From an uncultured Candidatus Saccharibacteria bacterium (lineage in GTDB: Bacteria > Patescibacteriota > JACMRA01): DNA of 64,000 nt. The stretch spans positions 26,206-90,205 of the forward strand of contig CAZVWQ010000002.1 of assembly GCA_964631275.1 (NCBI GenBank), read 5' to 3'. Within the stretch, counting starts at the first letter, position 1; the number at the start of each line of letters is the position of its first letter. Position numbers and translations under genes: made by a program. The notes below the pieces were generated by a model. That model was not told where the DNA came from, did no database searches, and saw nothing but the letters and a program-made list of their open reading frames with translations. This document shows positions 2,909 to 63,064 of this stretch, in pieces.

Positions 2909-3841
2909 ATGCTCAATCAGACTTACGATCCCAAAAAATACGAATCAGAAATATACAATAACTGGCAATCTCAGAGTTTAGGTAAGATTGAAATCCAAGA
3001 TGAAACTCAATTAAAATATATAATTTTTGATTTTGATGGGGTTTTGGCTGATAGTTATGAGGCTGAAATATACGCACTACAAAAAACAGGTAAATTTAGT
3101 GAAATAGATTCGGTTAAAGAATATCTTCAAGAAAAATTTCTTAACCCATCTGTAAAAAATTTTGATGACGTTGAAGAAGTGGCAGTAGAAACGCAAAAAA
3201 TCAGAAAAATCTGTCAGTATAAATTAGAATATGGATTTCATCTTTTTATGGGCTTTATTTATGAACTCAAAAAGCTTAAAAATTTTAGATTTGCTATCAA
3301 TACAACTGCTGACCACTCAAATGTAGACCATCTTTTAGCTGATATTGATCTGAGTTTTGATAACATTCAAACATTAGAAGAAAGCCTAAGTAAAAATCAA
3401 AAAAATAAAGTTATAATCAAAGATTGGAATCTATCTAGTAATCAGAATGTTTATTTTATTACCGATACTGTCAGAGATTATTTAGAAGTTAAAGAAACTA
3501 TAAAAGAGCAAAACATCTTAGCTGTTGATTGGGGCTGGCAAGGTTATCAAACCTTGATTAAATATATGCCAGAAAAGCAAATCCTCAAAAACTATCAAGA
3601 TATTCATAGAATTTTTCCAAGGCATTCAATCTTAATGCCACCGCCAAATTTAACTGGTAAAATGCACGCTGGGCATTCTTTTCAGCATTTTTTGATGGAT
3701 ACACTATCACGAATTAATAGACAAAAAGGTAATCCTAGTCTCTGGTATCCAGGAGTTGATCATGCTGGCATCCAGTTAGAAGGTGTTATCGATAAGTTAA
3801 TTAGAAAAGGTGAATTTGATGAAGAATTAAAAAATAAATAG
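2909..3841 (+). pseudogene. valS: valyl-tRNA synthetase N-terminal fragment with an in-frame HAD-like insert; truncated about 70 aa after the HIGH motif
   Basis: YDPKKYESEIYNNWQ opens as ValRS does. PPPNLTGKMHAGH..WYPGVDHAGI is the HIGH region. FDFDGVLADS..AINTTAD..ITDTVRD between them is HAD-like. TAG at 3839 is followed by multiple stops. Confidence 0.7.
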
Positions 3842-28745: not shown

Positions 28746-29612
28746 ATGTTTTTATTAGACAATCATACAGACATTTTGTTAGGGGATTGTCTGCAGGAAC
28801 TTAAGAAAATTGAAGATGAATCTGTTCAACTCATTATAACCTCTCCGCCATATGCAGATCAACGAGCTAAAACTTATGGTGGAATTCATCCTGACAAATA
28901 TGTAGAGTGGTTTTCACCAATTGCTAAAGAAATGTTACGGGTACTTAAACCTGATGGAACTTTTATTCTAAATATTAAAGAAAAAGTAGTTGAAGGGGAA
29001 AGGCATACCTATGTTTTAGAGTTAATTTTAGAGATGAAAAAGCAAGGCTGGTTATGGACAGAAGAATTTATCTGGCATAAAAAAAATTGCTATCCTGGCA
29101 AATGGCCAAATAGATTTAGAGATAGTTGGGAAAGACTTTTACAGTTTAATAAAAATAAAAAGTTTTCCATGTACCAAGATGAGGTTATGGTACCTATGGG
29201 TGATTGGGCAAAAACTAGATTGAAAAATTTAAGTAAAACTGATAAAATTAGAGATAATTCTAAAGTTGGTAGTGGTTTTGGTAAAAATATTTCTAATTGG
29301 GTTGGTAGAAATATGGCCTACCCAAGTAATGTTTTGCATTTAGCTACAGAAACTAGTAACAAAAATCATAGTGCTACTTTTCCTAAAGAGCTACCAAGTT
29401 GGTTTATCAAGCTTTTTACAAAAAAAGGAGACTTGGTCTTAGATCCATTTTTGGGTAGTGGAACAACTTGCCTTGCTTCGCTTGAACTTGAAAGGAATTC
29501 AATTGGGATTGAGATTAAAAAAGAGTATTATGAACTTGCTTTAGAAAACATCCATATTAAAAGAGAAGAGTTATTTACAAAAAATAAACAAAATGAATTA
29601 TGTCTAATTTAG
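28746..29612 (+). CDS. type II DNA methyltransferase (beta-class, SPPY motif; N4-C or N6-A)
   Basis: IITSPPYADQ (motif IV) precedes DPFLGSGTTCLAS (motif I). Starts 3 nt after the thrS stop. Confidence 0.88.
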   Translation: MFLLDNHTDILLGDCLQELKKIEDESVQLIITSPPYADQRAKTYGGIHPDKYVEWFSPIAKEMLRVLKPDGTFILNIKEKVVEGERHTYVLELILEMKKQGWLWTEEFIWHKKNCYPGKWPNRFRDSWERLLQFNKNKKFSMYQDEVMVPMGDWAKTRLKNLSKTDKIRDNSKVGSGFGKNISNWVGRNMAYPSNVLHLATETSNKNHSATFPKELPSWFIKLFTKKGDLVLDPFLGSGTTCLASLELERNSIGIEIKKEYYELALENIHIKREELFTKNKQNELCLI

Positions 29613-30334
29613 ATTATCAAAAAGTTGAAACTTTTATTCAAAACAATATTATTACAGTTTTTTATGATAAAAGAATAATAAATTTAGAAAAAATTCAACT
29701 CAATAAAATACTCAAGTCTAAAAATCCATACCTTCTTAAAGCCAAAAATATTGAAACTGCTAGTGACTTAATTAAATCAGTTTTAGATGCTGTAATCTCT
29801 TCTTCTGAAGAAACTATTTTTGGAAATTTATTAGAAGAATTGGCTATATTTGTAAATGAGATTGTTTACGATGGTAAAAAATCAACTGCTAAAGGAATAG
29901 ACTTGGAGTTTGAAAAAGGTGGTATTTTATATTTAGTAGCTATTAAATCAAGACCAAATTGGGGTAATAGTAGCCAAATTAAAAAAATGATATCAGATTT
30001 TATTTCTGCTAAAAAAACTTTAAGAACTAGTAATTCTAACAATAAACAAATTGAATTTATTAATGGTTGCTGTTATGGCAAAGATAACAATCCTGATAAA
30101 GGAAATTATTTAAAATTGTGTGGTCATAAATTTTGGAGTATAATTTCTGGGGACGAGGAATTTTATTTAAAAATTATCAAACCCATTGATAAGCAGAGCA
30201 AACAAAAAGATGAGGTTTTTAAAGAAAAATATGCAATGAAGTTAAATTTATTGACAGGGGAACTATTAGAAAATTATTGCATAAATGGAAAAATAAATTG
30301 GGAACAAATTTTAGAATTTAACAGTGGTAGCTAA
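29600..30334 (+). CDS. putative type II restriction endonuclease (family not recognised)
   Basis: Overlaps the methyltransferase gene by 13 nt. GIDLEFEKGG..VAIKS could be a PD-(D/E)xK-like core. Confidence 0.45.
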   Translation: MSNLDYQKVETFIQNNIITVFYDKRIINLEKIQLNKILKSKNPYLLKAKNIETASDLIKSVLDAVISSSEETIFGNLLEELAIFVNEIVYDGKKSTAKGIDLEFEKGGILYLVAIKSRPNWGNSSQIKKMISDFISAKKTLRTSNSNNKQIEFINGCCYGKDNNPDKGNYLKLCGHKFWSIISGDEEFYLKIIKPIDKQSKQKDEVFKEKYAMKLNLLTGELLENYCINGKINWEQILEFNSGS

Positions 30335-38529: not shown

Positions 38530-40047
38530 TTAGCTAGTCGTAATTAATTCATTCCATTGATTTTTAGGTTTCTCGCTAATTTTGGCCTTTGGGTAAGTTT
38601 TTTTGAATTCTTCTTCATCAACAGAAAATGGTTCTATGCTCTCTAAGGCGTGAATTTTGATTCCGTCAACTTCGGTTATGCCAGAGCGATTAATAGTCAA
38701 AAATATTCCTAAAATTTCAGCTTCTGCCTTTTTTAAAACTTTGATTAGTTTGGCTAAGGTTGTTCCTTGGGTAACTAAGTCTTCAGTAATTACTACTTTT
38801 TGACCTGGTTTAACTTTATGCCTTTTGAAGACGAATTCTGTTTCATGAGCTTTTTTGTTTGCTTCTTCTTTCTCAGCATATAGACTAGGAATATCTAAAA
38901 AGCTAGCCACGTAACTAGAGAGCCTAACTGAACCCATCATAGCTCCTATTGTTAGTTCTGGTTCTAGATTTAGATTTCTAATTAGGCTAGCCATGTCTTG
39001 AGCTAACCTAGATAGGATTTTGGGATTACCGTCTATAGCTCCTCCAATATTTATATAGAATGGACTTAAACGACCAGAAGTTAATCTGCACCAAGTTCCA
39101 TCAGCTTTGTTTTTTTCTTCTAGATAATACACGGCTCCAACTGAACGGAAGAGTTCTACTGGATTAAGGCAGGCGATCTTTTGATCAGAAGTTAAACTTG
39201 ATACAATATCTTTGCCAATGTCGTTTGTTTTTTTGGATAGACTTGACTGATTTTGCAAGTTTTCTTTTTGAGTAGATTTAGAAAATTTTTTGTAGGAATT
39301 TTGTTTATTTATTTGTGTATCTAAAATCTCTGCTAGAATTTTTTCGGTAGCTTTTTTTGGATCTTTGTCATCAATAATAGCCGTACCTACTACCAAACTA
39401 TCAGCTCCATTCTGAATAGCTTCTTTGGGAGTTGTGATACGATTTTGAGTAGAATTACTAACGGCCCAGGTTGGTCTGATGCCTGGGGTTATGATTTTGA
39501 TTTTGGAATTATTTTTATCAATTAAATATTTAGCCATGCTAGCCTCTTTGCCAGAACAAACCAAGCCGTCTAGTTGAGATTCTATAGCTATTTGCATTAG
39601 ATTTTTTACTGCCAAATCTTTGTTTATGCCAGTTTGTAAGGAATATTTTTGAGAGTCTTTGGAGGTTAGGATAGTGACTCCAATCAGCTTGAGATATTTT
39701 CCAGTTTGTTGGTATATTTTGTCTCTAACTTCACTAGCTGCTAAAGCTCCTTCTAGCCCGCAAGATTCTAATTGAATAGTTAAATAATCAAAATACTTAG
39801 CCAAAACTAAAACTCTTTTTGTTATCGTTGAAGGAATATCAGCTAACTTGGCGTCGTACCAGAGTTTGTTTTCTAATCCTTTGAGTCTATCCAGCCCATC
39901 AGCAAAAACTAACTCATCAAAGACAGAATGTATCTTTAGCCCGAGATTCGGGTTTGTTTTAACTATTTCGATAATTTCGTCTACCTTAGAATCTCTGGAT
40001 TCTAGATCAAGAGAAATAAATAGTTGAGGGAAAATAGTAAGAGACAT
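38530..40047 (-). CDS. pyrF-pyrE: fused OMP decarboxylase (N-terminal) and orotate phosphoribosyltransferase (C-terminal)
   Basis: LFISLDLE, WYDAKLADIPST, ITPGIRP (PyrF). VVITEDLVTQGTTLAKL PRPP loop (PyrE). Low-complexity linker in between. Confidence 0.88.
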   Translation of the reverse strand: MSLTIFPQLFISLDLESRDSKVDEIIEIVKTNPNLGLKIHSVFDELVFADGLDRLKGLENKLWYDAKLADIPSTITKRVLVLAKYFDYLTIQLESCGLEGALAASEVRDKIYQQTGKYLKLIGVTILTSKDSQKYSLQTGINKDLAVKNLMQIAIESQLDGLVCSGKEASMAKYLIDKNNSKIKIITPGIRPTWAVSNSTQNRITTPKEAIQNGADSLVVGTAIIDDKDPKKATEKILAEILDTQINKQNSYKKFSKSTQKENLQNQSSLSKKTNDIGKDIVSSLTSDQKIACLNPVELFRSVGAVYYLEEKNKADGTWCRLTSGRLSPFYINIGGAIDGNPKILSRLAQDMASLIRNLNLEPELTIGAMMGSVRLSSYVASFLDIPSLYAEKEEANKKAHETEFVFKRHKVKPGQKVVITEDLVTQGTTLAKLIKVLKKAEAEILGIFLTINRSGITEVDGIKIHALESIEPFSVDEEEFKKTYPKAKISEKPKNQWNELITTS

Positions 40048-46115: not shown

Positions 46116-47870
46116 ATGTTCGGTTTTGGAAAAAATAAAGGTTCCACCCCTATTCAAAATACTCAAGGAGACCAAATTCAATTTGATCCTAGTCAGGTAA
46201 ATTATGATCCTAATTCTCAAGGTTCGGATCAAGCAGCTATACCTAATCTTGGCATGGCACCTCAGTTTTCACCTTCAGGCCAGACGCAAAATCAAAATTT
46301 TACTGCCTTAAGTCAAAACACTGCTAGTCAGTCACAAGCTGACCAATTTAATCCTGCTGACCAAAGTCAAGTTTTTTTAGAAAATCAAAATACAAACAAC
46401 TTTAACCCTCAAGTAGGAGCCCAGGTTCAACCAGCTTACCAACAGGGTCAACCTTCGATATCTAACCAAAGCAATCCAAATCCTGTTATTAACCCTAATC
46501 CCGAAATGCAGGAAGGGCGAGATGAAAATATCGTAAATACTGGTAATTTTAGTCAGTATAATTCTAATCTAAACTTAGAACCTACAACTACTGTGACTAA
46601 CCTCCAGCCTAGCCAAGGACTCCCTCAGTTTGATGAAAACAATTTTAATCAAGAGCTTCAAGGTAATCTAAACGGTAATTTACAAACCAGTACTCCTCTT
46701 ACAGATCAAAATTTAGATACTCAGACGCTTAATACTAGTTTTGAAAATTCTAATTTTCCATTAGAGCAGCAATTTCCGTCAAATAATCCTCAGGATTTTG
46801 GATCTCAACCAGAGTTTAATATTGATCAACAAACGAATTCTCAAACCTTACCAGAGTCTAATTTGCAATTGCAGAGAGATAGTCAACAAACCAGCCAAGA
46901 TCAAGGTCAACCGCAACCTTTAGATCCTCAAAATGATTTTCAACCCCAGCAGAATTTAGACATAGAGGCTAGTCAGGATTTACAAAATCCAGGATTTCAA
47001 AATGAAAATTACAATCAAAACTTTACAGACTTTAATCAAACAGGTCAAAACCTAGCTTCTCAGAATTTTCAAACTGAAATGCAATCTAATCAATCGCAAA
47101 TTGATTCTAGTCAGTTTGGAGGAAATTCCCAAGATTTTCAGAATTTTCAGTTATCACCTACTGCTATAGATCCAGAAGCTATCAAAAAAGTCAATGAAAT
47201 ACTCGATTTATTAACTGAGGGTATTTCAGAAGATCAAAAAGAAAAAGAAAAAGCTAAAAAAGCTACTCAGATAGCTCAAGGCTTAGGTATTTTTAGCACA
47301 GAAAATTTCGGTAGCGAAGATAAAAGTTTAGAATTTTTTATTCAAGAAATTAGTCAGATATATCAAGTTGGTTTAGAAACAAAAACATACGTATTTAATA
47401 ATTTTTATTTACAAAATTCTAGTCAGTTAGGAATTGATATAAATACTAACGCACTAGAACAAAGCCCAAAAGATCAAGAAATAATAGACTTTTTAAGAAT
47501 CTTAGCAAAAGGTAAATTTGTAGAAGTTTATAAAGAGATTCGATCCAAATCAAAGTTAACTGCAAATACAGATACAGGAGAAGAAGTTAATTATCTAAGG
47601 GTTTTAGAAGAGCTAGAGAGGCAAAATCCAAACGATACAATGATAGAAAGTATTATAAATAAAGTTAAAAATATCCAAGAATTCAAAGATTTATTTAGTG
47701 GGTGTGAAAACTATCTCAAATCTCATAATTTTGAACTTAATAAAAATGAAAGCCAACTAAAATTAATTCTTACTACATCTGACATTATAGCTTTAGATGG
47801 TAATAATAAGGCTGCTTTTATAGAACAACTTAACCAAGTCAACCAAAAGATTGCACAGATCCTAGATTAG
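46116..47870 (+). CDS. Q/N/P-rich low-complexity protein with a globular C-terminal domain
   Basis: About 350 aa dominated by Q, N, P and S, then about 230 aa of ordinary composition. Confidence 0.65.
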   Translation: MFGFGKNKGSTPIQNTQGDQIQFDPSQVNYDPNSQGSDQAAIPNLGMAPQFSPSGQTQNQNFTALSQNTASQSQADQFNPADQSQVFLENQNTNNFNPQVGAQVQPAYQQGQPSISNQSNPNPVINPNPEMQEGRDENIVNTGNFSQYNSNLNLEPTTTVTNLQPSQGLPQFDENNFNQELQGNLNGNLQTSTPLTDQNLDTQTLNTSFENSNFPLEQQFPSNNPQDFGSQPEFNIDQQTNSQTLPESNLQLQRDSQQTSQDQGQPQPLDPQNDFQPQQNLDIEASQDLQNPGFQNENYNQNFTDFNQTGQNLASQNFQTEMQSNQSQIDSSQFGGNSQDFQNFQLSPTAIDPEAIKKVNEILDLLTEGISEDQKEKEKAKKATQIAQGLGIFSTENFGSEDKSLEFFIQEISQIYQVGLETKTYVFNNFYLQNSSQLGIDINTNALEQSPKDQEIIDFLRILAKGKFVEVYKEIRSKSKLTANTDTGEEVNYLRVLEELERQNPNDTMIESIINKVKNIQEFKDLFSGCENYLKSHNFELNKNESQLKLILTTSDIIALDGNNKAAFIEQLNQVNQKIAQILD

Positions 47871-49719: not shown

Positions 49720-51276
49720 ATGATTACCAAAATTTTAACAGCAACTAATTTAGGACTGCAAACTCAACTAGTAGAATGTGAGATTGATATTTCACCTGGT
49801 ATGCCGGCTATGGTTGTAGTTGGTTTGCCAGATAAAGCTGTTCAGGAAAGTAGAGAAAGAATCAGAGCAGCAATTAAGCAGAGTGGATATGACTTCCCTT
49901 TAGGAAAAATCACAATAAACCTGGCTCCAGCTGGAATTGCTAAGTCTGGATCTAGTTTTGATTTGCCAGTTGCTTTAGGAATTTTACATTCGATTGGATT
50001 TGTACTAAAAGAAATTAGCAACAAGAGTCTCTTTTTGGGCGAGTTATCTCTAGATGGTAAACTTAGGCCAATTAAAGGTGTTCTGACTTTGTGTTTATGG
50101 GCTAGCCAAAATGGGTACACAGAAATATTTATCCCCAAAGCTAATTTTCAAGAAGGTTCTTTGGTTAAAAATATTAATATTTATGCGGTAGAGACTTTAA
50201 CTGAAATTGTTGATTATTTGAACCAAAAAATAAAATTAAAAAAACTAGAACCGGTAGATCTAAAAGACTTTTCTCAAAAAATTAATTTAGATAAGATTAT
50301 AGATGAAAATGGTTTATATCTCAATGATTTGGCCTACGTTCGAGGACAAAAAGTAGCCAAAAGAGGCTTAGAAATAGCGGCTAGTGGTGGGCATAATGTG
50401 CTGTTTATAGGACAGCCCGGAAGTGGAAAAACTTTATTAGCCAAAAGCTATCCAACAATTTTACCACGTATGACCGAGAGAGAAATTTTAGAAGTAACTC
50501 AGCTTTATTCTATTAGTGGCCTGCTTGATGATGGAGAAATTATTACTCAAAGGCCTTTCCGTTCACCACATCACTCTAGCTCTCATATCGCTTTAGTAGG
50601 AGGTGGGTCAAAACTTAGGCCAGGAGAGATTAGTCTTGCCCATCGAGGAGTTTTATTTTTGGATGAATTTCCAGAATTTAGCCGAGAGACTTTAGAAGCT
50701 CTAAGGCAACCTTTAGAAGATGGTAGGGTCACCATTTCTCGTGCTTCAGGATCGGTGGAATATCCAAGTAGGTTTTATTTACTGGCCGCAGCCAACCCCA
50801 CACCTAGCGGATTTGATCCAGATAATCCAGATGCTCTTAGTAGGCCTCAAAATCGCTCGGCTATTAACCGTTATCAAGCTAAGTTTAGTGGGCCTATCTT
50901 AGATCGAATAGATATCCAAGTAGAAGTTAATAGGCCAAAAAAAGAAGAATTACAAAACAAAGAAATGTCTGAACCTAGCTCGCAAGTAGCTAGTAGAGTT
51001 CAAAAAGCTAGGGATATACAAAGTCAAAGGTTTCAGAACGAAACTATCTTTACTAACGCAGAGATGAGCCTTAAATTAATTGAAAAATATTGCCAACTCG
51101 ATGTAGAAAGTAAAAATCTCTTAGATGCTGCTATCGATAAGTTCAGAATGTCAGCTCGTAGTTACATGCGAATTCTAAAACTATCTCGAACAATTGCTGA
51201 TTTAGATGGTTCTGAAAATATCTTATCTAAACATTTAGCTGAGAGCTTGCAGTACCGAGGTAGGTGGGGAGGTTAA
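49720..51276 (+). CDS. comM: YifB/ComM family Mg-chelatase-like AAA+ ATPase
   Basis: Lon-like N-domain, GQPGSGKT, VLFLDEFPEF, C-terminal helical domain. 518 aa. Confidence 0.93.
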   Translation: MITKILTATNLGLQTQLVECEIDISPGMPAMVVVGLPDKAVQESRERIRAAIKQSGYDFPLGKITINLAPAGIAKSGSSFDLPVALGILHSIGFVLKEISNKSLFLGELSLDGKLRPIKGVLTLCLWASQNGYTEIFIPKANFQEGSLVKNINIYAVETLTEIVDYLNQKIKLKKLEPVDLKDFSQKINLDKIIDENGLYLNDLAYVRGQKVAKRGLEIAASGGHNVLFIGQPGSGKTLLAKSYPTILPRMTEREILEVTQLYSISGLLDDGEIITQRPFRSPHHSSSHIALVGGGSKLRPGEISLAHRGVLFLDEFPEFSRETLEALRQPLEDGRVTISRASGSVEYPSRFYLLAAANPTPSGFDPDNPDALSRPQNRSAINRYQAKFSGPILDRIDIQVEVNRPKKEELQNKEMSEPSSQVASRVQKARDIQSQRFQNETIFTNAEMSLKLIEKYCQLDVESKNLLDAAIDKFRMSARSYMRILKLSRTIADLDGSENILSKHLAESLQYRGRWGG

Positions 51277-51520: not shown

Positions 51521-51537
51521 ATATGTCATATTTTTGT

Positions 51538-53079
51538 ATGACAGTAAAAAATCTAAAAATTGGTTTAAATATCTTAGGCTTTGGTTTACTTTGTCTTGGA
51601 TTAGTAGTTTTTGGTCTAACCATGGAAGCTCAATATATTGATGATGATAATCATAATGTAGCTTGTTATGCTGTGGCTGATAATGGGGTAAATGACGGCC
51701 CCGACCAACTAGTCAGAATATTTCAAAACGAAATTGTAGTAATTGGTGATTATACTGGCACTCAAGGCATCGAAGGCATGGCTATTAACAGGGCTACAGG
51801 GGAGGTTTATGCAGCTGATGCTGGCAGGTTAGGAAGATTAAATTTGCAAACTGGACTTTTTAGTTTTGTAGCTAATTTTGGTAGCGGTAGAGGTAGTATT
51901 GGCGACAGACAATTTAGAGATGTTGATGCTTTAGTAATTGACTCAGAAACTAATATTTTATTTGGAGTTAATAAAATTTCTGAAACCAGAGAACACTTGT
52001 TATTTCAGTTTGATCTTAATACTAATCAATTAATCAGAGATGCTTATGGGCCTGGAGCTGACTATGTAGTAGTTAGGCATCAAGGAGTCAGTCAAGGAGT
52101 TAATGATTTAACATGGTATCAAGGAGATTTGATTGGAGTCGGATACTATAACAACATGGCAAATAATGGCTCAAACAAAGTTTATAGGATTTTTAATCTT
52201 AATCGATATACTGGCGAGGTAAGCGAGAGCTACAATACAGAAATTAGAGATATAGAGGCTATTAATACTGACCCTTTTGGCCAATTATACGGAATTGTGT
52301 CTGCTCAAGGGTTTAGTCATGCAGATACTATTTTTAAGATGACTAGATTTGGTCAAATTGACCTAAATAGTAGCAGGTCAATTACTGTAGGCTTTGATTA
52401 TGAGGCTGTAGTTTGCATCGAATACTATCCTACTGATGACTCTTCTTCGTCAAGTGAAGACAGCAACTTTAGCTCTAGTACTTCTGAGCAAAGTTCAGTT
52501 AGCTCTGTGGATTCTTCTGATTCGTCAGAAGATAGTGAAGATAGTGAAGATAGTGATTTATCTGATTCTAATAATTCTAGCTCAGAAATTAGTTTATCTA
52601 GTGATAATAGTATCCAAAGCTCATTGTCTAGTGATTACTCAAGCTCGTTTAGTAATTCTGATAGTTCTAACTCTTCTCAGTTAAATCAAAATACTGATAA
52701 TAATTCTAGCTCTTCAAATGACTCGGGTAACTTTAACTTTTCTCAATATATACCTGAAGACTATACTCCTACTATAATCCAAAATAGCTATCCAGGTCAT
52801 CCTAATTTTAAGCAGCTAAATAATCAAGATTTTTCAGAAAACAACACTAACATTATTGATGATAATGAAGCTATAATCACTCAAAACATTTCAGAATTAA
52901 ATAGTAACAGCACTGAAAATACACCTAGCTCACTTACATTAATTAGAACTGGAGGTCAAAATAGCTTTATTACGAGACTTGCTATTTCTATGATTTTGGT
53001 TTTATTTGGTATTAGCCTTTTGCTTATCAATATGAGGATTTCAGAAGAATCTATGAGATATACTAAAATCAACTTCTAA
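51538..53079 (+). CDS. cell-surface protein with signal/TM N-terminus, repeat-like globular domain, S/D-rich stalk and a sortase-type sorting-signal variant
   Basis: C-terminus reads LIRTGG, then hydrophobic ITRLAISMILVLFGISLLLI, then a charged tail. SSSSEDS.. stalk. Confidence 0.7.
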   Translation: MTVKNLKIGLNILGFGLLCLGLVVFGLTMEAQYIDDDNHNVACYAVADNGVNDGPDQLVRIFQNEIVVIGDYTGTQGIEGMAINRATGEVYAADAGRLGRLNLQTGLFSFVANFGSGRGSIGDRQFRDVDALVIDSETNILFGVNKISETREHLLFQFDLNTNQLIRDAYGPGADYVVVRHQGVSQGVNDLTWYQGDLIGVGYYNNMANNGSNKVYRIFNLNRYTGEVSESYNTEIRDIEAINTDPFGQLYGIVSAQGFSHADTIFKMTRFGQIDLNSSRSITVGFDYEAVVCIEYYPTDDSSSSSEDSNFSSSTSEQSSVSSVDSSDSSEDSEDSEDSDLSDSNNSSSEISLSSDNSIQSSLSSDYSSSFSNSDSSNSSQLNQNTDNNSSSSNDSGNFNFSQYIPEDYTPTIIQNSYPGHPNFKQLNNQDFSENNTNIIDDNEAIITQNISELNSNSTENTPSSLTLIRTGGQNSFITRLAISMILVLFGISLLLINMRISEESMRYTKINF

Positions 53080-54291: not shown

Positions 54292-55029
54292 TTAGAACGG
54301 GCCAGAAGACCTAAAAGAAAATAAATCTAAAAGAAAATTATAAATCCAAAGCCCTAAGACCAAGATTAAAGCTATAGCTAAAATTATTATAAAAACTCGA
54401 TTACTAATTCCTAAATTAGAATTCTGAAAAACATTGACAATTCCTCTACTAAAAAAATCCTCCGACTGTCTCTTACCTGAATCTAGTTGGGCTAGAACCC
54501 GATGAAACTCAGAACCATGATCACGGACAAAGACATGAGCCAATTCGTGAGCAACTACGTGCCTAATATGTTTACCTGAGTCATATTTTATTAAATTCTG
54601 ATTAAAAAAAAGTATAAATTTTTTCTTTCTTGGATTAATCTGATTAATGCCCCATTCTTTTTCGTACTGACCGATTTTAAAATCAATTTGAGAAGAATAT
54701 TTTAGTTCTTTAAGATATTCATTAACCGAAAATTTAACTTGTTTAGCAAAAGTTTTTTTGCCGTCTGTATAATTCAGACTTACTGAAACTCTTTTGTCTC
54801 TAAGACTTGCGATTCCACTGCGAATAATTTTTTTTAACTCTCTAATACAAAATTTCTCATATTCTCTTTGGAACTTAGAAAAGTTTTTGGAGATTTCTGG
54901 TTTTACCCAGAATTTATTCCCATCAAAACTCAAACTAGCCCACTGCCGCCGAACCTCAACTTCTCGGATTTTGCCTTTAAAAGGAGCGGTTGCAAAGGGC
55001 ATCGGATTAGTTTGTATTAAAAGGATCAA
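54292..55029 (-). CDS. DUF45/YgjP-like zinc metallopeptidase with a C-terminal TM helix
   Basis: HVVAHELAHVFVRDHGSEFH and VFIIILAIALILVLGLWIY. Confidence 0.65.
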   Translation of the reverse strand: MILLIQTNPMPFATAPFKGKIREVEVRRQWASLSFDGNKFWVKPEISKNFSKFQREYEKFCIRELKKIIRSGIASLRDKRVSVSLNYTDGKKTFAKQVKFSVNEYLKELKYSSQIDFKIGQYEKEWGINQINPRKKKFILFFNQNLIKYDSGKHIRHVVAHELAHVFVRDHGSEFHRVLAQLDSGKRQSEDFFSRGIVNVFQNSNLGISNRVFIIILAIALILVLGLWIYNFLLDLFSFRSSGPF

Positions 55030-55801
55030 AAGGATTAAAGTTACGCTCTTCTTCCCATTCTGAGATTTTTTCAGCTAGGTTGATTGTGGTTTTTACTGGT
55101 TCAATCTGAGAAGTAATGTCTTTAAAATACTCTATTTCAAATATTGAGCCTTCGATTCTATTAATGCTTTCAATAAATTCATAATCGAAATCGACATTTA
55201 TTGAGTCGTTATCTACAAAATCAGGATAAGATAAAAAAATTCGATTATAGCTGTTAGTCTGAGCATAAAGAAATACCCAATAATCTTGATTCTGATAACT
55301 AAAAGAGTGTAAGTCCAAAACTCTTGGCCCAGCGTAATTGAGCTTTCCGTTTTCTTTGAGGACATATATGTTGTAATCATAATCTATCTGAGTATTCTCA
55401 TTTAAATATATATCGGTAAACTGATCTCCAATATAAAAATTATCATCTTCTTTGATTTTAATTACCTTTTCTCCAGTTACTAAATCTCTGATTACAAAAT
55501 CTTCTAGAGTTCTGATGTCTTCTTTTTCGGCAATATCGAATTGATTTTGGTAGATATTACCATTTAAGGCTCCTTCAGGGTCAATTATGCCTTCATCTAA
55601 ATTTCTTAACCCTTCAATTGTTTGATCAAATTCTCGCCTTCCTTCATCGATACTTTCGTTAATTTCTTCTTGAATAGCCTGTCTACCCTCTTGATTCAGA
55701 TTTTGGTTATTTTTAGAAGAAAAATTAAAGATAACAAAAAACACAGCTAAAAGAATTGTAGTTGCAATTAAAATTATGATTATTTGGTTTCTTTTAGTCA
55801 T
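55007..55801 (-). CDS. N-terminally anchored hypothetical protein
   Basis: TM helix IIIILIATTILLAVFFVIF. Overlaps the next gene by 23 nt and starts 4 nt after the giant gene. Confidence 0.6.
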   Translation of the reverse strand: MTKRNQIIIILIATTILLAVFFVIFNFSSKNNQNLNQEGRQAIQEEINESIDEGRREFDQTIEGLRNLDEGIIDPEGALNGNIYQNQFDIAEKEDIRTLEDFVIRDLVTGEKVIKIKEDDNFYIGDQFTDIYLNENTQIDYDYNIYVLKENGKLNYAGPRVLDLHSFSYQNQDYWVFLYAQTNSYNRIFLSYPDFVDNDSINVDFDYEFIESINRIEGSIFEIEYFKDITSQIEPVKTTINLAEKISEWEEERNFNPFDPFNTN

Positions 55802-55805
55802 ATTT

Positions 55806-58800
55806 TTATATTTTTACCCCTTCTCTAGTGCAAGTAGATTGGCCAGTTTTATTATTTGAAATATTAGTTATGCCTAGTTTTTTATAAGCATCAATAACAA
55901 ACTGTGTGCTATGTTCATAACCTCCATTACTACTTCCACCAGCTTTTATTTTTATGTCTACATGTGCACCATAGGATTCTCCTGTATTACCCATTATACC
56001 AATTATATTACCAGCTGAAACTCTATCACCTACTTTGAGGTTAGAAGGCTGTCTAAGATGATGAAACCTATATTCTTTACCATCTGCCCCTCTAATAAAG
56101 ATAGAATTACCCCCTGCTCCTCTAGAACCAACAAAACTAACTTCTCCAGCAATCGGTGAAGGAATAAAAGGGTCTCCATTTGGATTTCTTAAAACATAAT
56201 CCGTACCCCAATGAGTTCCGTTACGGTATTCTCTAGGAGAATAAAAACAATCTGTAATTATTAGCTGCCATCTGGATAGCTCATCTTTGCCTAAACAATC
56301 TTCTCCATCATTACAAATTGCACCTATGTTAGCTAAACTTGTTCCTGATAAATCAGCACTTGGATTAGGGCAATAAGCAGGTTTTTTTGAATTACTTGCC
56401 ATCTCAGAATTAGTTTCTACTGTATTTGTTTCTTTGGGCTGGTCTTTTTCATTTTCTGATCCCTCACCTTGTCCATCGTCAGCTTGAGCAAAATAAAATA
56501 AATTAGAATTATTATTAGTTAATTTGTTTCTTAATTCTATTTCAGTTAAAGCTTGTTGCTCAACCCCGCTAGCACAAGTAATTATCTGAAAGTTTTTAAA
56601 AGCCGCTTCACCGTAATCTCTATCACAGGTACCGTTACCATCACAGCCACTACCCAGCCATCTAGCTGTGGCTCCATAGATGGGGTGCTTATCTGGAAAA
56701 GCATTCATTCTTTTTTTGTCTTCATATCCGGCTTCTATCACAGCCATCTGCAAAGCTCTGTGGCTCAAGTTTTTGCCATTTTCGTCTGGACCACCACTGA
56801 CAGTAAATTGATTTATAGTTGGAATGTATCCTAGAGCAACCATGGCCCACCCTCCATTACCAAGACTTGAATCATAGCCGTGCCCAGGACATAATTGAGC
56901 TACTCCAAAGCATCCAATCCCATTGATAGTTCCAGGCCCCCAAATATCTTCTTTACCTCCAGTTTCGGTAGCCATTAGAGTAATAACAAAGGTTATAGTC
57001 TCTTGACTTACTCCAGCTTCATTACCAGCATTAATAACTTCTTTGATGTGTCTTACTGGAATTTGACCATCTTGACTAACTCGACCAGCATTACCTCTCC
57101 AAAGAGTAATTGTTTCATCATCTGATTTATCATCAATTAAAGCTTTTAAACACTGAGAAATTTCTCCAACATTAGCTGTCCTGCTAGAAGTTCCACCAGC
57201 CGCCAGAATACAGCCACAGTCGTCAGCTCCTGCAGACAAAAATTCGATAGATCCAGAAGACCCTTGAGTTTCTAGATCTTCTAATTTTGTACTACCACCA
57301 CTGTAATACCACTCCCAAGACTCATAGTCAGATCCGTTAGACCCATCATTAGATAATTCGAAGCCATAAGTCTCAGCATTATTTTGTAACGACCTAAAGG
57401 CTTGAGTATTTTGGAAAGAGTTATCTAGAGCGTTGTTGTTTTCGGAGGTTGTAAAATCAACTACCAAGCCTGTAGCATGTTTTGAAAAACCAGGAGGGGC
57501 AGAGACAGTAGCTCTGGCTAAGTAGGCTTCTTTAGCCGCTTCGTATTCAGGAGTACCTTCTGTCCAAGAATCTTGGAATATTCTATCGTTTGGGATTGGG
57601 TTAGTTACACTACTACTTGAATTAAAATAAGTTCCTACCTGGTCATTATAGCTTCGATACAAAGAAGTAGGGTTTAGATTAACTCCATCTCTATTTGCAG
57701 CAGCTATCATTTCGTTTAGTTTTGATTGTAACTCTGAGTTTACAGAGCCTGTATCTTCGTAGCCTTGATAACCTCTCTCAGCTCCTATTTCAGCTAAAAA
57801 CTGCTTATGCTTGTCACTCAGGGATTCGTAGCTACTTGGTCTAGTCTGAGCCTTAGTCTGTATCGGTCTGATTATTAGACTTGGATCAAGAAAGACTCCT
57901 TGAGAATCTTTTTCATCTGGATCATCTGAGCCTGAGGCATTTTCTTCGTCTCTGTCATCTTGATCAAAATCTGTACTAGTCTCTAAAATAGAGCTGTGAG
58001 CTTGGCCGATTGGGCAGCACCAGATATTAGAGAAATTACCTCCAACTCCACTACCTCCGCTAGGAGAAATTCCGTCAGAATATTTATAGTCGCCTTGCCT
58101 TTGAGCTACCATTGCCACATGAAAATGGTGTGTATGAGCCCAACCTTCGTTTATAAATATCCCTCCAATATCCCCATCATTTTGCACACTTCTAGAGCTA
58201 CTTCCAGTATCAGAAACTTTGGTCTTACCTTTTGAATTTAAATGATTCTTAAAATGTTTATTAGCTATAAACTGACTACCTACACCAGATCCGTAAGCAA
58301 TATCATAAACACCTTCAAACAAATTAGCAGCTTCTTGATCCACTATTCCAGCATCTGTAATATTACCAATATCAACATGCCGTCTAATTCTAGGATCGGG
58401 TGTATTCCCGTTATTAACCGCTTTGTCAGGATAACCACCAGCCCATCTAGCTCCTCTGCCACTAGTTTTAAAGCCTTTTATTGGTTCTCCCTTTATATCG
58501 CTTAATCTGCCAACACCCCAAATATCAACAGCCCGACTTGGGTTTACATGGTCTCCACTACCTCTTCCCCAATCTCTTGGGCCGGTAACCAAGGCAAAGC
58601 CCGCACGATGAACATTATCCAGGAATTGTACAATATTAAAGTCGAACTGCCCGTTTCTAATTGCACTCTCAGTATTGCTAGTAATTGGCCTAACTTGATA
58701 AAATTCACCGTTTTTGTAGTAGTCCGCTACACGATTTCTTACAGCTTGCTCATCCTCTTGAGCAGATACTTCTACAGGTCTTAAGAAATTAAGAGGGTTG

Positions 58801-61800
58801 AGATTAGATAAATTAAAATCATTAAAGCCAACCTGATTGTCAGCTATTTGTACGTCTGAACCACCACAGCCTTCTCTAATTCTCTCATAAGTATTACTGT
58901 TGAAATACTCTCTTAAAACTGGCTGGCCTCTTTGTTTTTTTCGGCAGATCTCATGAATGCCCGAACCGCAAGAGGCTCTATCTCCATATGCTTGATCGTA
59001 GTGATCAATAGCTTCTAATTGCCTTTCTACTTCTTGAGTCCAAGTGTTACCATTACTAGCCAAGGTAGACTCAATAATTCTTAAATGTTCAATCGGCTTG
59101 ACTCCACTACTGAATTGCAAACCTGACTGGTTAACCACTGATACTACATCAGTCCCAAAGTAGCTACGCAAAACACTTTCAGGTGCTGCTCCCCGAGTTA
59201 CTAGCCTAGCATACTGAGCTTTGTCTTGCATGACTTCATCTTTTTCATAGACTGACTGACATTGACTAATACTAATCTCTGGAAAAACTTGATTTGTTCG
59301 GTAACAAACCGAATCTGCAGCAGTACTGGTTAGTTCTCTAAGTGGAATTTGGTATTTACCGACACAAGGTCCACTACAATAATTAGCTCTCATACCCAAT
59401 CCAGCTCCACTAGTCTCCATAGCACTAATCATCGTTATATAAGCAGTAAAAGCTCTAGGAATATCGGAAGGAATCCAACTTGGGCTTCTTCCCTTAGCTC
59501 CACCAGTAGCGGTGACTAGTCTAGATCCGCAATCAAAGCCTTCTCCAGGTGTACCGCCAGCTACCCCACCCCCACCATTCTCCGCTAAAGTATACGTTCC
59601 ATCAGGATTTTTGATGTAGGCTACATATCCAGCCGGGCAGCTAAATCCCGGAGACTGATCTTTACAACCTAACTGATCTGCAAAAAACTTTTTGACTATA
59701 CTATCAGGTACTTCGATGCCAAAAAATCCATTAATAACCACTCTAGCTCCAGTAATTGCGTTATTTTTACCTCCAATAATTCTTTCAGCAGCATAAAAAG
59801 AAGGTTCAAAAACTTTATCTCTAACATTCTCTAAAGGTATACAATAGACTCCAATTACAGTTATAAAAAACAAAGCTAAAACTGCAGCTATTATCAAAAT
59901 CACAGCCAAGACCGGACCACCCACTGTAGTCAAAAAGCCACCAACAGCATTCACTGCCGCCGAAGTAGCCTGAATAGTCATTTTTTGAGCGGCCCTACCC
60001 GCTGTTCTTCCAACCTTCTTAACCCCTTCTGTAGCTAGATCTTTAGCTTTTTGGTAGGCTTGGTCTTTGAGATTGTCAGCTAGACTGCGATTATCAATTA
60101 ACCTTTCTTCGATTTCTGCTCTTTCTGAAGCAGTTAAGCTAGGATCATTAAGAGCTTCGTATTGTCTGATTTGCTCGTCTTTGCCTTCGACTTGTCTATC
60201 AATACCAACTTTATCTGTTTGTAGATTATCAAAGAATTCATCGTCTTTAGCCTGATCTCTGTCAATTCGAGCATCCTTGTAGCGAGTTGCTCTACCACCC
60301 AGGTCAGGGCCGTCAGTTCTATCTAAGTCCATAGGTCCGAGTTCTCCACCTTCGCCTTCTGACCTGTTTGGTAATCTGTACCTACCTAGAGGACTTAAGT
60401 TTAGCATAGCTGGAGTTGTTCTACCAGTTGCCGCTTGAGCCCTATAAGCATCATTATCTAATTTGTTACCTGCTAGAACTTCATTTCTTTGATCTTGGTA
60501 TTCTCCATTAAGTTGTTGATCACCTGGACTAGCAGAATCAAAATTCTCTTGCCCTCGCCAATAAGTATCTAATTCATAAGGATCTAAGATACTTTTGTTA
60601 CCATTATCATCAACTATTTGTTCTAAAGCCTCATCTTCTTTCCTTAGTTTTTCTAAATCTAAAGATGCAACCTCTTTAGCCTGACGTCTCTTTGAATCTC
60701 TAATTTCACCTTGCAAATCAGCTGTTTTTCTACGAAATGTGCTTGGCTCAAACCTATCTTCTTGATTTATGTCTCTGCCTAATTGTTGATAAACTGGATC
60801 ACTAGGATCCGGACCTTCGGACGGCAAGACTATAATTGGAGGCTTAACAAACGGTGGTATGATCTCTTGCTCTGGTATTTGTGATACTTTTTCATCTGGA
60901 GAGACAGAAATTGTGCCAACTGGAGAAAGTTGAGGATTCAAACTTGAGCTTCGTCGCCTTCGTCTACGTTCCCCTCCTTGATCTACTCTTGAGGTAGGAC
61001 TTTGAGATATTCCTGGACTCGGAATATTACTAACTCCTTGAGAATTAACACCAGCAGCAGAAGATGGCTTAGAAACTACCGTATTAGCTTCGTCGGTCGG
61101 ACCAGCCACAGCACTAACAACACCCAAAGCTAGAGCTGCTTGAACTAACCTAGCTCCTAAGTCAAAATTTGACGGAGTAGTTGAAACACCACCGTTTATG
61201 TTTATATCAAATTCACTAACTCTAGCCGCAACTTGTTGTTGCATATACCCAAAACCCTCTCGATCCTTAGGAATTGAAACTCCAGCTTTTTGGTAGTTTT
61301 GTTCCAATCTTTGCCTGATAATCTCTTCGATTTCATTTTGATCAAAGTCTTTAGCCTGCACTTCTCTAGCTACTTGAGCAGTTGTACATTCTTCAATCAC
61401 CTGATTTACTTGATCCGGAGTTAAAACTCCAACAGCAACTTTAACCTGGTTTCGCTTAAATCTATCAGTAACTTGTTCAACTCTTTGCAAAGCAAACTCC
61501 GGGCTAAGAGCCTTTTTACTTGCCTTTTTTTGTTGGTTAATTAATTTCAAAGCCGTAGCCCTAACAAAATCTTCAGAAACCTGAGAAGCCCTTTCTTGGT
61601 TTTGAGGTTGCTGAGGGTCTTCGGATTCTTGTTTTTTTACAATTTCCTGTCTGATTCTTTGATCTAACTCTTGAGCTAAATTATCTATTTCCTTTTCTTC
61701 ATCTTGCCTTAGCTTTTCTAATCTTTGGTCAATTGGGTTATCCTGAGAGTCTGGTTCTTCTTTTGGTAAACTAGTAGAAATTACTTCTGGACTGCTATTT

Positions 61801-62864
61801 GCTTCTGGATCCGAATTCAAAGTTTCAGTTTGATCTAGGATACCGCCCGCCGCTGGAGTTTGCTCAGAAACTTGCCCCTGAGATTCTTGTCCAGTTGGAA
61901 TAGGTTCTAAAATTTGACCTTCCTTATTTTGCCCAAAATTAGTTGGCTCCATATTTGGACTTTTTGGATCCTTAGAAGTAGTTGTTTGCACTCTTCGAGT
62001 TTTTTGATCTAAACTTGTTTGAGAAGCTTTCATCGCAGCTGTTACCGCAGCACCCGCAGCTAAACCTCCTGTTCCAGCCATGGCTTTGCGAGCAAATTCT
62101 ACAGCTTCATTTTGACCTTCTTCTTGCTCATTTTTATCACCTTCTTCTACCTTTCTCAAAAGCTCCAAAATCCTATCACTAACTTCTTTTTCTTGTTCTT
62201 TATAAAAAACGTTAGCTAAATACTTAGTAAATAAAATTTCAATTATAGCTTGAGACTCAAAAAATTCGAGATCTAATCCCTGTCTAGTTGAATTAAGACT
62301 GACCTTTAGAGTATTTTCTAAAGCTTCAAGAACTATTTCTTTTGTTCCTTCTAGATTAATCTGTCTACTAATCTCAAGAATTCTAACAGCTCTCAAGTCT
62401 TTCTCTAACTCCAAAAGACTATTTACCTGACTGCTAAGATCTAAATTTTTTAATTTGGTTTTAAATAAACTAAATAATTGATTAACGAAAAGTAAGAAGG
62501 TCTCGTTAATTTTTTGTTGGTCACTATTTCCACCTGAGTTATTAGCCTGTTTGCCAGTGACATTACTATTGATAAAAATATAAAACAAAGCGGCTTTAAT
62601 CTGATTTAGATTATCAGCTCCTTCGCTACCTACCAGAAGACTTAGTTGATTTCCATTATTAATTGTATTTAGGACAGACTCAACAAATCGATATTCGAAT
62701 AAATAATCTTCTTTAGAAGTAATCCTATCGTTTTGTATTTTGAGTATCTCTAACAAAGCTTCAGAGTTAGAACCAACATAAAAATCAAATCTATACTCAC
62801 CAAAGCCAAAGCTCTCTGGAGAATTTGTTTTTAATTCGGTAATTTTTGTAGTGTTTTGAAGCAC
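55806..62864 (-). CDS. giant (2352 aa) membrane-anchored multi-domain murein hydrolase-like protein
   Basis: No signal peptide. About 965 aa of charged/coiled N-region. TM stretch near 59838-59965. Then ISAMETSG (SLT-like), GDHVNPSRAVDI..HTHHFHV (LAS-like), SKHATGLVVDF..ESWEWYY (VanY-like), LMATETGG (SLT-like) and THWGTDY..FHHL..GNTGESYGAHVDI (M23). GTG start. Confidence 0.9.
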   Translation of the reverse strand: MLQNTTKITELKTNSPESFGFGEYRFDFYVGSNSEALLEILKIQNDRITSKEDYLFEYRFVESVLNTINNGNQLSLLVGSEGADNLNQIKAALFYIFINSNVTGKQANNSGGNSDQQKINETFLLFVNQLFSLFKTKLKNLDLSSQVNSLLELEKDLRAVRILEISRQINLEGTKEIVLEALENTLKVSLNSTRQGLDLEFFESQAIIEILFTKYLANVFYKEQEKEVSDRILELLRKVEEGDKNEQEEGQNEAVEFARKAMAGTGGLAAGAAVTAAMKASQTSLDQKTRRVQTTTSKDPKSPNMEPTNFGQNKEGQILEPIPTGQESQGQVSEQTPAAGGILDQTETLNSDPEANSSPEVISTSLPKEEPDSQDNPIDQRLEKLRQDEEKEIDNLAQELDQRIRQEIVKKQESEDPQQPQNQERASQVSEDFVRATALKLINQQKKASKKALSPEFALQRVEQVTDRFKRNQVKVAVGVLTPDQVNQVIEECTTAQVAREVQAKDFDQNEIEEIIRQRLEQNYQKAGVSIPKDREGFGYMQQQVAARVSEFDININGGVSTTPSNFDLGARLVQAALALGVVSAVAGPTDEANTVVSKPSSAAGVNSQGVSNIPSPGISQSPTSRVDQGGERRRRRRSSSLNPQLSPVGTISVSPDEKVSQIPEQEIIPPFVKPPIIVLPSEGPDPSDPVYQQLGRDINQEDRFEPSTFRRKTADLQGEIRDSKRRQAKEVASLDLEKLRKEDEALEQIVDDNGNKSILDPYELDTYWRGQENFDSASPGDQQLNGEYQDQRNEVLAGNKLDNDAYRAQAATGRTTPAMLNLSPLGRYRLPNRSEGEGGELGPMDLDRTDGPDLGGRATRYKDARIDRDQAKDDEFFDNLQTDKVGIDRQVEGKDEQIRQYEALNDPSLTASERAEIEERLIDNRSLADNLKDQAYQKAKDLATEGVKKVGRTAGRAAQKMTIQATSAAVNAVGGFLTTVGGPVLAVILIIAAVLALFFITVIGVYCIPLENVRDKVFEPSFYAAERIIGGKNNAITGARVVINGFFGIEVPDSIVKKFFADQLGCKDQSPGFSCPAGYVAYIKNPDGTYTLAENGGGGVAGGTPGEGFDCGSRLVTATGGAKGRSPSWIPSDIPRAFTAYITMISAMETSGAGLGMRANYCSGPCVGKYQIPLRELTSTAADSVCYRTNQVFPEISISQCQSVYEKDEVMQDKAQYARLVTRGAAPESVLRSYFGTDVVSVVNQSGLQFSSGVKPIEHLRIIESTLASNGNTWTQEVERQLEAIDHYDQAYGDRASCGSGIHEICRKKQRGQPVLREYFNSNTYERIREGCGGSDVQIADNQVGFNDFNLSNLNPLNFLRPVEVSAQEDEQAVRNRVADYYKNGEFYQVRPITSNTESAIRNGQFDFNIVQFLDNVHRAGFALVTGPRDWGRGSGDHVNPSRAVDIWGVGRLSDIKGEPIKGFKTSGRGARWAGGYPDKAVNNGNTPDPRIRRHVDIGNITDAGIVDQEAANLFEGVYDIAYGSGVGSQFIANKHFKNHLNSKGKTKVSDTGSSSRSVQNDGDIGGIFINEGWAHTHHFHVAMVAQRQGDYKYSDGISPSGGSGVGGNFSNIWCCPIGQAHSSILETSTDFDQDDRDEENASGSDDPDEKDSQGVFLDPSLIIRPIQTKAQTRPSSYESLSDKHKQFLAEIGAERGYQGYEDTGSVNSELQSKLNEMIAAANRDGVNLNPTSLYRSYNDQVGTYFNSSSSVTNPIPNDRIFQDSWTEGTPEYEAAKEAYLARATVSAPPGFSKHATGLVVDFTTSENNNALDNSFQNTQAFRSLQNNAETYGFELSNDGSNGSDYESWEWYYSGGSTKLEDLETQGSSGSIEFLSAGADDCGCILAAGGTSSRTANVGEISQCLKALIDDKSDDETITLWRGNAGRVSQDGQIPVRHIKEVINAGNEAGVSQETITFVITLMATETGGKEDIWGPGTINGIGCFGVAQLCPGHGYDSSLGNGGWAMVALGYIPTINQFTVSGGPDENGKNLSHRALQMAVIEAGYEDKKRMNAFPDKHPIYGATARWLGSGCDGNGTCDRDYGEAAFKNFQIITCASGVEQQALTEIELRNKLTNNNSNLFYFAQADDGQGEGSENEKDQPKETNTVETNSEMASNSKKPAYCPNPSADLSGTSLANIGAICNDGEDCLGKDELSRWQLIITDCFYSPREYRNGTHWGTDYVLRNPNGDPFIPSPIAGEVSFVGSRGAGGNSIFIRGADGKEYRFHHLRQPSNLKVGDRVSAGNIIGIMGNTGESYGAHVDIKIKAGGSSNGGYEHSTQFVIDAYKKLGITNISNNKTGQSTCTREGVKI

Positions 62865-63038: not shown

Positions 63039-63064
63039 ATAAAAAACCAGCCTTTTAGGGCTGG
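63039..63064 (-). terminator. rho-independent terminator
   Basis: Minus strand reads CCAGCC-CTAAAA-GGCTGG followed by TTTTTT. Confidence 0.55.

Follow-up and report, generated by a model that had tools for sequence, protein, structure and literature searches.

A predicted giant membrane-anchored protein with several peptidoglycan-hydrolase-like modules in a Candidatus Saccharibacteria bacterium

Multi-domain wall hydrolases anchored in the membrane are a known kind of protein. PrgK of pCF10, TraG of pIP501 and CwlT of ICEBs1 each combine an N-terminal anchor with tandem peptidoglycan-hydrolase domains outside the cell, following the logic of a monoderm envelope; they carry two to three modules and a short cytoplasmic part, and their genes lie inside type IV secretion system (T4SS) operons. 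PrgK, which serves the producer's own envelope, contains LytM, SLT and CHAP domains, of which LytM is degenerate and carries no metal, and SLT is down-regulated by the other two (PMC11323569). These proteins are the closest analogues of a giant protein encoded in a 64,000-nt stretch of contig CAZVWQ010000002.1 (hereafter, the window) from an uncultured Candidatus Saccharibacteria bacterium. The giant protein is of the same general kind and differs from its analogues in having five candidate modules, a predicted cytoplasmic arm of ~960 aa and no CHAP domain; no T4SS genes occur in the sequence examined. It belongs to a small, rare family in which wall-active modules are freely swapped. The family is apparently undescribed, the literature searched having yielded no account of it.

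The gene is a single open reading frame (ORF) with a GTG start at 55806–62864 on the minus strand (ORF listing of the window), encoding a predicted bitopic wall hydrolase of 2352 aa. An earlier note on the window, made from the sequence alone, had placed it there, and the identical 2352-aa product was called independently in two Logan assemblies and one NCBI record, a contig of 102 kb. At ~39% GC, with a random stop rate of ~6.5%, the chance of 2352 stop-free codons is ~1e-68. Every motif string listed in the note was recovered at its position: the R6 tract (aa 633–638), GGFLTTVGG.. (aa 975), ISAMETSG (aa 1146), GDHVNPSRAVDI (aa 1437), HTHHFHV (aa 1577), LYRSYNDQ (aa 1735), SKHATGLVVDF (aa 1794), ESWEWYY (aa 1848), LMATETGG (aa 1963), THWGTDY (aa 2217), FHHL (aa 2267) and GAHVDI (aa 2299). 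The GC content of the gene is 39–41%, compared to ~30% elsewhere, and the excess is confined to codon positions 1 and 2. At position 3 (GC3) the value is 0.238, the same as in other genes of the window, which argues that the gene is native; we therefore rejected recent horizontal transfer as the source of the high GC. A terminator-like hairpin with a T-run (63047..63064, minus strand) closes off the small ORFs upstream, which suggests that a separate transcription unit begins with the giant gene.

An exhaustive HMMER search with aa 1007–1700 against 1.84 billion cluster representatives returned only 19 relatives, all 1010–3062 aa long. Together with the giant protein they form a family of 20 clusters at 50% identity with a common anchor and topology; P0024 comes from assembly GCA_038751365.1, and P0009/P0011 and P0012/P0016 are pairs of close orthologues. 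In the giant protein, the only strong hydrophobic peak spans aa 973–1006 (Kyte-Doolittle, 19-residue mean up to 3.28); a hydrophobic segment at the N-terminus is absent, in line with the claim of the earlier note that there is no signal peptide. Hydropathy, flank charges and an alignment of 20 anchors place the core of the transmembrane (TM) helix at aa 984–1008 (59841..59915, minus strand), inside an uncharged stretch of aa 962–1011. A single Cys is found in aa 1–1000, compared to 26 in aa 1001–2352. This partition recurs throughout the family: a single TM helix dominates in each of the 20 members, with 0–1 Cys on its N-side versus 11–26 on its C-side. The 20 residues before the helix contain 2–9 Lys and Arg, those after it 2–4, and the N-flank carries more of them in 18 members, the other two being ties. 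The Cys partition and, by the positive-inside rule, the flank charges argue strongly for a type-II, N-in/C-out, single-pass protein with its arm predicted to be cytoplasmic, and thereby support the topology proposed earlier, that of one membrane-anchored chain whose long N-region lies in the cytoplasm and whose hydrolase-like modules face outward. A second TM helix at aa 568–590, where a weak hydrophobic peak reaches a Kyte-Doolittle value of 1.75, was considered and judged unlikely, as it would require export of a 567-aa N-terminus that has no signal.

The predicted arm (aa 1–961; 59982..62864, minus strand) is charged and of low complexity, and it contains one Cys and the R6 tract. It has no match in Pfam, NCBIfam, PHROG or PDB sequences, even at E up to 1–10, and no homology, by phmmer or hhalign, to the N-regions of the relatives. 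These regions range in length from less than 200 aa, in N-terminally truncated members, to ~1420 aa; they are homologous within subgroups only, with no homology detectable between subgroups, and the arm of the giant protein matches no subgroup. On the other side of the membrane, a juxtamembrane segment (aa 1009–1094; 59583..59840, minus strand) with a conserved Cys pair (G-C...SCPAGY), identified by phmmer and alignment, has matches directly after the TM helix in seven relatives. A Cys at the outer end of the helix (C1008, ~nt 59841–59843, in 'YC-xP') is present in 20 of 20 members, with a conserved Cys pair 50–90 aa further on; the site does not fit a canonical lipobox, and a disulfide or acylation is conceivable.

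Pfam was run on the whole giant protein and on seven segments, with gathering cutoffs of 25 bits for VanY and 28.7 bits for M23, and the only matches are to VanY and Peptidase_M23. Module C (57285..57797, minus strand) is a VanY/M15B domain (PF02557; Pfam span aa 1708–1856; 88.4 bits, E 4e-25) and module E (aa 2218–2310; 55935..56213, minus strand) an M23 domain of the LytM type (PF01551; 52.1 bits, E 8e-14). NCBIfam and PHROG results agree; the tape-measure and endolysin matches in PHROG cover the VanY and M23 domains only, and module E matches M23, LytM and lysostaphin in PDB sequences. Both modules had been proposed from their motifs and are confirmed here by profile scores above the Pfam thresholds.

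The two domains share a departure from their families. The VanY module keeps S1794-K-H1796...D1803 (SxHxxGxxxD) and the catalytic E1848, and its ExxH motif reads E1848-S-W-E1851, so that the third-ligand His is replaced by E1851 (~nt 57312–57314); E-x-W-H is kept at this position in 13 of 13 aligned relatives. The M23 module keeps H2218-W-G-T-D2222 (HxxxD) and H2269, and reads H2301-V-D2303 in place of HxH (D2303 at ~nt 55956–55958); the other three M23 modules of the family (P0006, P0019 and P0020) all keep H-L-H, and LytM, too, has H-x-H. The Glu-for-His change in VanY and the HxD in M23 had been read correctly in the earlier note, and both His-to-acid substitutions are unique to the giant protein within the family. 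Compared to VanY/LdcB-type M15B carboxypeptidases, module C thus retains an 88-bit Pfam match, SxHxxGxxxD and the catalytic Glu of ExxH, and differs in its third ligand and in sitting in a multi-module chain. Compared to LytM/lysostaphin-type M23 enzymes, module E retains a 52-bit Pfam match, HxxxD and the mid-domain His, and differs in its H-V-D. In LytM, Zn is bound by the second His of HxH. Glu and Asp can also ligate zinc competently in metalloproteases, and for this reason the substitutions may leave metal binding intact. Alternatively, VanY and M23 may have turned regulatory, like the degenerate LytM domain of PrgK.

Module B (aa 1357–1632; 57969..58796, minus strand), examined by alignment, AlphaFold modelling and Foldseek, is a candidate MepA-like LAS peptidase of a new family. 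H1439, D1447, R1492, R1495, D1498, H1577, H1579, H1580 and H1582 are invariant in 14 aligned sequences. The AlphaFold model is confident over the core (predicted TM-score, pTM, 0.77), and the top five Foldseek matches in the PDB are MepA chains (E 6.6e-3 to 2.2e-2, probability 0.72–0.87); their TM-scores of 0.29–0.40 are weak, and all other PDB matches have E>1. Pfam, NCBIfam and PHROG contain no match to M74, M15 or M23 at E<=10, and a PDB profile search returned His-tag artefacts only. The combination of an H-x(n)-D plus H-x-H pattern with a match to MepA alone supports the LAS assignment. Of the LAS module claimed earlier, the conserved domain with its invariant H/D and HxH thus stands; the structural match is weak, and a sequence-profile match is missing. 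E. coli MepA, an M74 LAS murein endopeptidase, is the only fold match and shares the metal-site pattern of module B. It is a soluble periplasmic enzyme, in contrast to module B, which is part of giant proteins and has the additional invariant residues R1492, R1495 and D1498, an HxHHxH motif and a terminal Cys-Cys-Pro. The first ~100 residues of the module (aa 1360–1455; R-x-R-V-A-G-Y...N-I-V-K-F-L-D) recur alone, with weak scores, in P0011 (2850–2926), P0013 (1294–1350), P0017 (1629–1697) and the giant protein of L004 (aa 1130–1187). Module B may, judging from these recurrences, consist of a separable helical subdomain and a metal-binding core.

The earlier note had described two further segments as SLT-like, SLT (PF01464) being the lytic transglycosylases of GH23. 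Neither has a profile match: modules A, B and D lack any Pfam, NCBIfam, PHROG or PDB sequence match, even at E up to 1–10. Module D (aa 1879–2129; 56478..57230, minus strand), examined by alignment and hhalign, has T1966-E1967 and C1985-x-G-x-x-Q1990-x-C1992 invariant in six sequences. While the giant protein itself gives no Pfam match here, module D of relatives matches Transglycosylas (E 0.0085) and Phage_lysozyme2 (E 0.0084 and 0.13) below cutoffs, over the motif region. Against an SLT mini-profile of three sequences (the Pfam-positive SLT of P0006 and two PDB Slt sequences), hhalign aligns module D with E 0.0097 and 4% probability, with helix-ES...G.G.Q in register; modules A and B, used as controls, give E 0.47 and 0.57. 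This alignment and the weak matches of the relatives suggest that module D is probably lysozyme/SLT-like. It has no match to the small SLT-like proteins encoded at L009 and L010.

Module A (aa 1095–1354; 58803..59582, minus strand) is conserved, has no Pfam model and is present in eight family members, in all of which E1150 (E-T/S) and G1169-x-Y1171-Q1172-x-P1174, reading G-K-Y-Q-I-P, are invariant. One of five AlphaFold models is confident (best pTM 0.79), the other four having a mean predicted local distance difference test score (pLDDT) of 55–62. In that model a helix at residues 42–57 ends at E56, the invariant Glu, and is followed by short strands, an arrangement that is suggestive only. 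No lysozyme-like fold is seen in it: the best Foldseek matches, neither of them significant, are an aldolase in the PDB (E 0.28) and, in BFVD, a match with E 0.03. Module A is thus a conserved domain with an invariant Glu and no fold assignment, for which a glycosidase-like function is possible. An internal duplication relating A to D was rejected, as BLASTP finds nothing and hhalign aligns the short catalytic motif alone (5% probability). The earlier suggestion of two SLT-like segments therefore retains modest hhalign support for D and no lysozyme fold for A, and the more general one of five murein-hydrolase modules is supported only in part: by profile scores for VanY and M23, more weakly for B and D, and by neither profile nor fold for A. 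Outside the membrane the giant protein would thus carry two or more bona fide metallopeptidase modules and a further probable one, plus one probable and one possible glycosidase-like module.

The relatives vary this theme, and both the order and the combination of modules differ between members. Module A occurs in eight of the 20 members, module D in six and module B in 16 clearly and in part in P0007. In a Pfam scan of all 20, VanY was found in 17, Beta-lactamase2 in six, Amidase_2 in five, M23 in four, DPBB_1 and Peptidase_S11 in three each, Peptidase_M15_4 in two and SLT in one. All of these Pfam families are peptidoglycan-active, which argues that the family is built from interchangeable peptidoglycan-active modules, and the same scan revealed no adhesin or wall-binding domain. 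Searches for modules A and B in GenBank phages, PLSDB plasmids, IMG/VR and GTDB representative genomes returned no relatives at the sensitivity used. New features are how many and how varied the stacked modules are, an arm predicted to be cytoplasmic that is very large and hypervariable, three conserved domains that have no Pfam model, a conserved partner gene and the paired acidic ligand substitutions. The giant proteins of Omnitrophota are likewise very large and envelope-associated, come from uncultivated bacteria and carry wall- or carbohydrate-degrading domains; in contrast to the giant protein, they exceed 30,000 aa (ten times longer) and contain many TM helices and SecA-like domains (bioRxiv 10.1101/2023.11.21.568195). 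None is among the 19 relatives, no homology was detected, and they were dropped as counterparts, as were the systems of the Lipocone paper, for their different architectures.

The partner gene (55007..55801, minus strand) follows co-directionally 4 nt past the stop of the giant gene and encodes a 264-aa protein with an N-terminal TM anchor and a ~230-aa ectodomain, without a Pfam match. At all loci examined, one or two small bitopic ORFs, also without Pfam matches, begin ~1–14 nt after the giant gene, and sequence similarity among the partner proteins is weak. Downstream of the partner gene, the co-directional order continues with an SprT/YgjP-like metallopeptidase with a C-terminal TM helix and a squalene/phytoene synthase. 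The window is chromosomal, encoding topoisomerase I, threonyl-tRNA synthetase (ThrRS), a Mur ligase, ArgG, PyrF-PyrE, PdxS, ComM, adenosine deaminase and glutamate dehydrogenase.

We compared this context at nine related loci, over up to 10 kb on each side. The neighbours there are housekeeping genes, with murT, secE-nusG, yidC, dnaG and clpB nearby, and at four distinct loci (L005/L006, which represent the same gene, L009, L010 and L011) the gene immediately upstream of the giant one is dnaK, in divergent orientation. L009 and L010 also share SNase, an EnvC-like M23, a small lysozyme-like gene, signal peptidase, murT and secE-nusG. Between these two loci the neighbours, including the housekeeping EnvC-like M23, are 36–81% identical, the giant proteins, which have different module sets, 26–32%, and the partners ~20%. 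Over the 55 kb that follow the giant gene in the window, and at the nine related loci, there are neither phage structural genes nor T4SS ATPases. The earlier note had named flanking phage or T4SS genes as what would make the protein an ordinary member of such systems; none were found here or at the nine loci, the window ending 1.1 kb upstream of the gene.

A few uptake or pilus genes lie within a few kb of giant genes: a ComM-like Mg-chelatase ATPase (window 49720–51276), DprA and T4SS_pilin, the coordinates outside the window being L003 18469–19569 and L004 12161–12688; this linkage is loose and may be coincidence. At L011 (13095–22362), the giant gene is followed by genes for two small bitopic proteins of 246 and 276 aa, then for a polytopic protein of 1621 aa that has ~7 hydrophobic segments and an N-terminal ectodomain rich in Cys, and then for proteins of 292 and 613 aa. 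None of these downstream proteins has a Pfam match, and the genes may form an extended operon. The second large ORF of L011, whose product is polytopic, was rejected as a paralogue of the giant protein.

What might such a protein do? Our tentative reading, to which we give a little less than an even chance, is that the tethered chain acts on the producer's own wall, in local remodelling or in making space. In its favour, the anchor is permanent, synteny is chromosomal, and PrgK offers a precedent as an anchored multi-domain hydrolase that makes space for envelope machines in monoderms (PMC11323569); in Patescibacteria, such VirB1-like hydrolases are often not linked to virB4 (PMC12102498). Once the late signal-anchor has emerged, the C-terminal chain would be exported and stabilised by disulfides. 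Connected by acidic low-complexity linkers, the modules would stay tethered to the membrane of the producer and work within a restricted radius, with D, and perhaps A, cutting glycan strands and B, VanY and M23 cutting peptide stems or cross-links. The arm and the co-transcribed partner would position or restrain this activity, and the remodelling might serve growth, division or envelope-spanning machines. Several observations weigh against this reading. Fast divergence and shuffled modules are more typical of inter-organism conflict than of housekeeping, and the genomes of relatives also encode ordinary small hydrolases (M23, SLT-like, YceG). The canonical third His ligand is missing from both VanY and M23 here, A and D are only candidate glycosidases, the model of A lacking a lysozyme fold, and the match of module B to MepA is weak (TM-score 0.3–0.4). 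The arm has no known cytoplasmic partner.

Some of these observations fit a weapon directed at a host or prey, along the lines of the earlier note, which had considered action on a host wall in a small-genome, possibly episymbiotic organism. The chain would reach out where two cells touch and digest the wall of a host bacterium, and the partner, which evolves fast, would protect the producer as an immunity protein or inhibitor. We regard this as unlikely, although of real weight: module sets are shuffled among relatives, giant protein and partner evolve faster than their syntenic neighbours, the arms are not detectably homologous between subgroups, the family is lineage-restricted and coexists with ordinary small hydrolases, and a single chain with several bond specificities is reminiscent of lytic weapons. 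According to the summary given in PMC12102498, an epibiotic patescibacterium cannot grow epibiotically without its peptidase and lysozyme homologues. A weapon is harder to reconcile with permanent anchoring in the producer's own membrane, with ligand substitutions in two metallopeptidase modules and with a Pfam scan free of adhesin and wall-binding domains; moreover, ArgG, PyrF-PyrE, PdxS and glutamate dehydrogenase in the window do not obviously point to minimal metabolism. In its boldest form, which we consider improbable, the family would be the wall-breaching organ of an ultrasmall episymbiotic or predatory lineage: a membrane-rooted chain of interchangeable muralytic modules, stabilised by disulfides, would be extended at the contact site and open the host sacculus, A, B and D would be new enzyme families, the hypervariable arm would couple the chain to an attachment or feeding apparatus, the fast-evolving partner would be a self-protecting inhibitor and the acidic ligands would be an adaptive change of metal or specificity.

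Compatible with either target is the possibility that catalysis is confined to one or two modules and at least two of the five are non-catalytic, VanY (E1851) and M23 (D2303) in particular being degenerate and serving in regulation or binding, as in PrgK; to speak of 'five hydrolases' would in that case claim too much enzymatic activity. Only the giant protein has lost the third-ligand His, which 13/13 VanY and 3/3 M23 relatives keep, and A and D are hydrolase candidates only. Set against this, both domains score well above their Pfam thresholds, neither the remaining two ligands nor the catalytic residues (E1848; H2269, H2301) have been lost, and Glu and Asp can ligate zinc. With the degenerate, regulatory LytM domain of PrgK as precedent (PMC11323569), we find such partial catalysis doubtful but worth serious consideration. 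A mobile-element protein, by contrast, is very improbable, whether as the tape-measure or virion lysin of a phage or as a VirB1-like hydrolase belonging to an integrated conjugative element. With tape-measure proteins and virion lysins the giant protein shares its great length, helical or low-complexity part, hydrophobic segment and lysin modules, and it matches PHROG tape-measure and endolysin entries, over VanY and M23 only; it differs from them in its N-in/C-out Cys partition, its native codon usage and GC3 and the conserved chromosomal synteny with dnaK. There are no tail or head genes nearby, the neighbours being squalene/phytoene synthase, an SprT-like peptidase, ComM and adenosine deaminase. 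Nor do the phage, plasmid and IMG/VR collections contain modules A and B. Patescibacteria often have VirB1-like hydrolases unlinked from virB4 (PMC12102498). A T4SS_pilin gene lies ~5 kb from the giant gene in L004, one of the related loci, and the window stops 1.1 kb upstream of the giant gene; no T4SS or conjugation cluster (VirB4, coupling protein, VirB6) is present in the window or at the nine loci, and the 55 kb downstream are free of phage structural genes.

Elsewhere in the window, the ThrRS ORF (26331–28742, plus strand; 803 aa) contains a DUF559/REase_MTES_1575 endonuclease-like insert at aa 151–257, which separates the N-terminal part from the tRNA_SAD and catalytic domains. It is followed by a type II restriction-modification pair (28746–30334, plus strand) of overlapping genes for an N6_N4 methylase (288 aa) and an EcoO109I-like endonuclease (244 aa). 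A 518-aa Ser/Asp-rich protein (51523–53079, plus strand) with an N-terminal hydrophobic signal and no Pfam match has a C-terminus in which 'LIRTGG' is followed by a hydrophobic segment and then a basic tail, resembling a sortase-type sorting signal. A 505-aa ORF (38530–40047, minus strand) joins orotidine monophosphate decarboxylase and phosphoribosyltransferase in a PyrF-PyrE-like fusion. Another ORF of 310 aa (2909–3841, plus strand) combines a HAD hydrolase with the first ~70 positions of a class I aminoacyl-tRNA synthetase core and may be a split, fused or frameshifted gene. The first ~400 residues of a 584-aa protein (46116–47870, plus strand) are extremely rich in Gln, Asn, Ser and Pro, of low complexity and without a family match; such proteins seem common in the genome.

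The family adds three conserved, apparently wall-active domain families that lie beyond Pfam, NCBIfam, PHROG and PDB sequence profiles, one of them a MepA-like LAS candidate with an unusual HxHHxH site; they would enlarge the catalogue of peptidoglycan hydrolases and offer targets for enzymology. The paired His-to-acid changes in two unrelated LAS modules of one protein amount to a natural experiment in metal coordination. With up to five or more wall-active modules of different specificity on a single anchored chain with a large arm, the question arises how so dangerous an enzyme would be controlled from inside the cell. If the carriers are episymbionts, the family would be a specific candidate for opening the host wall.

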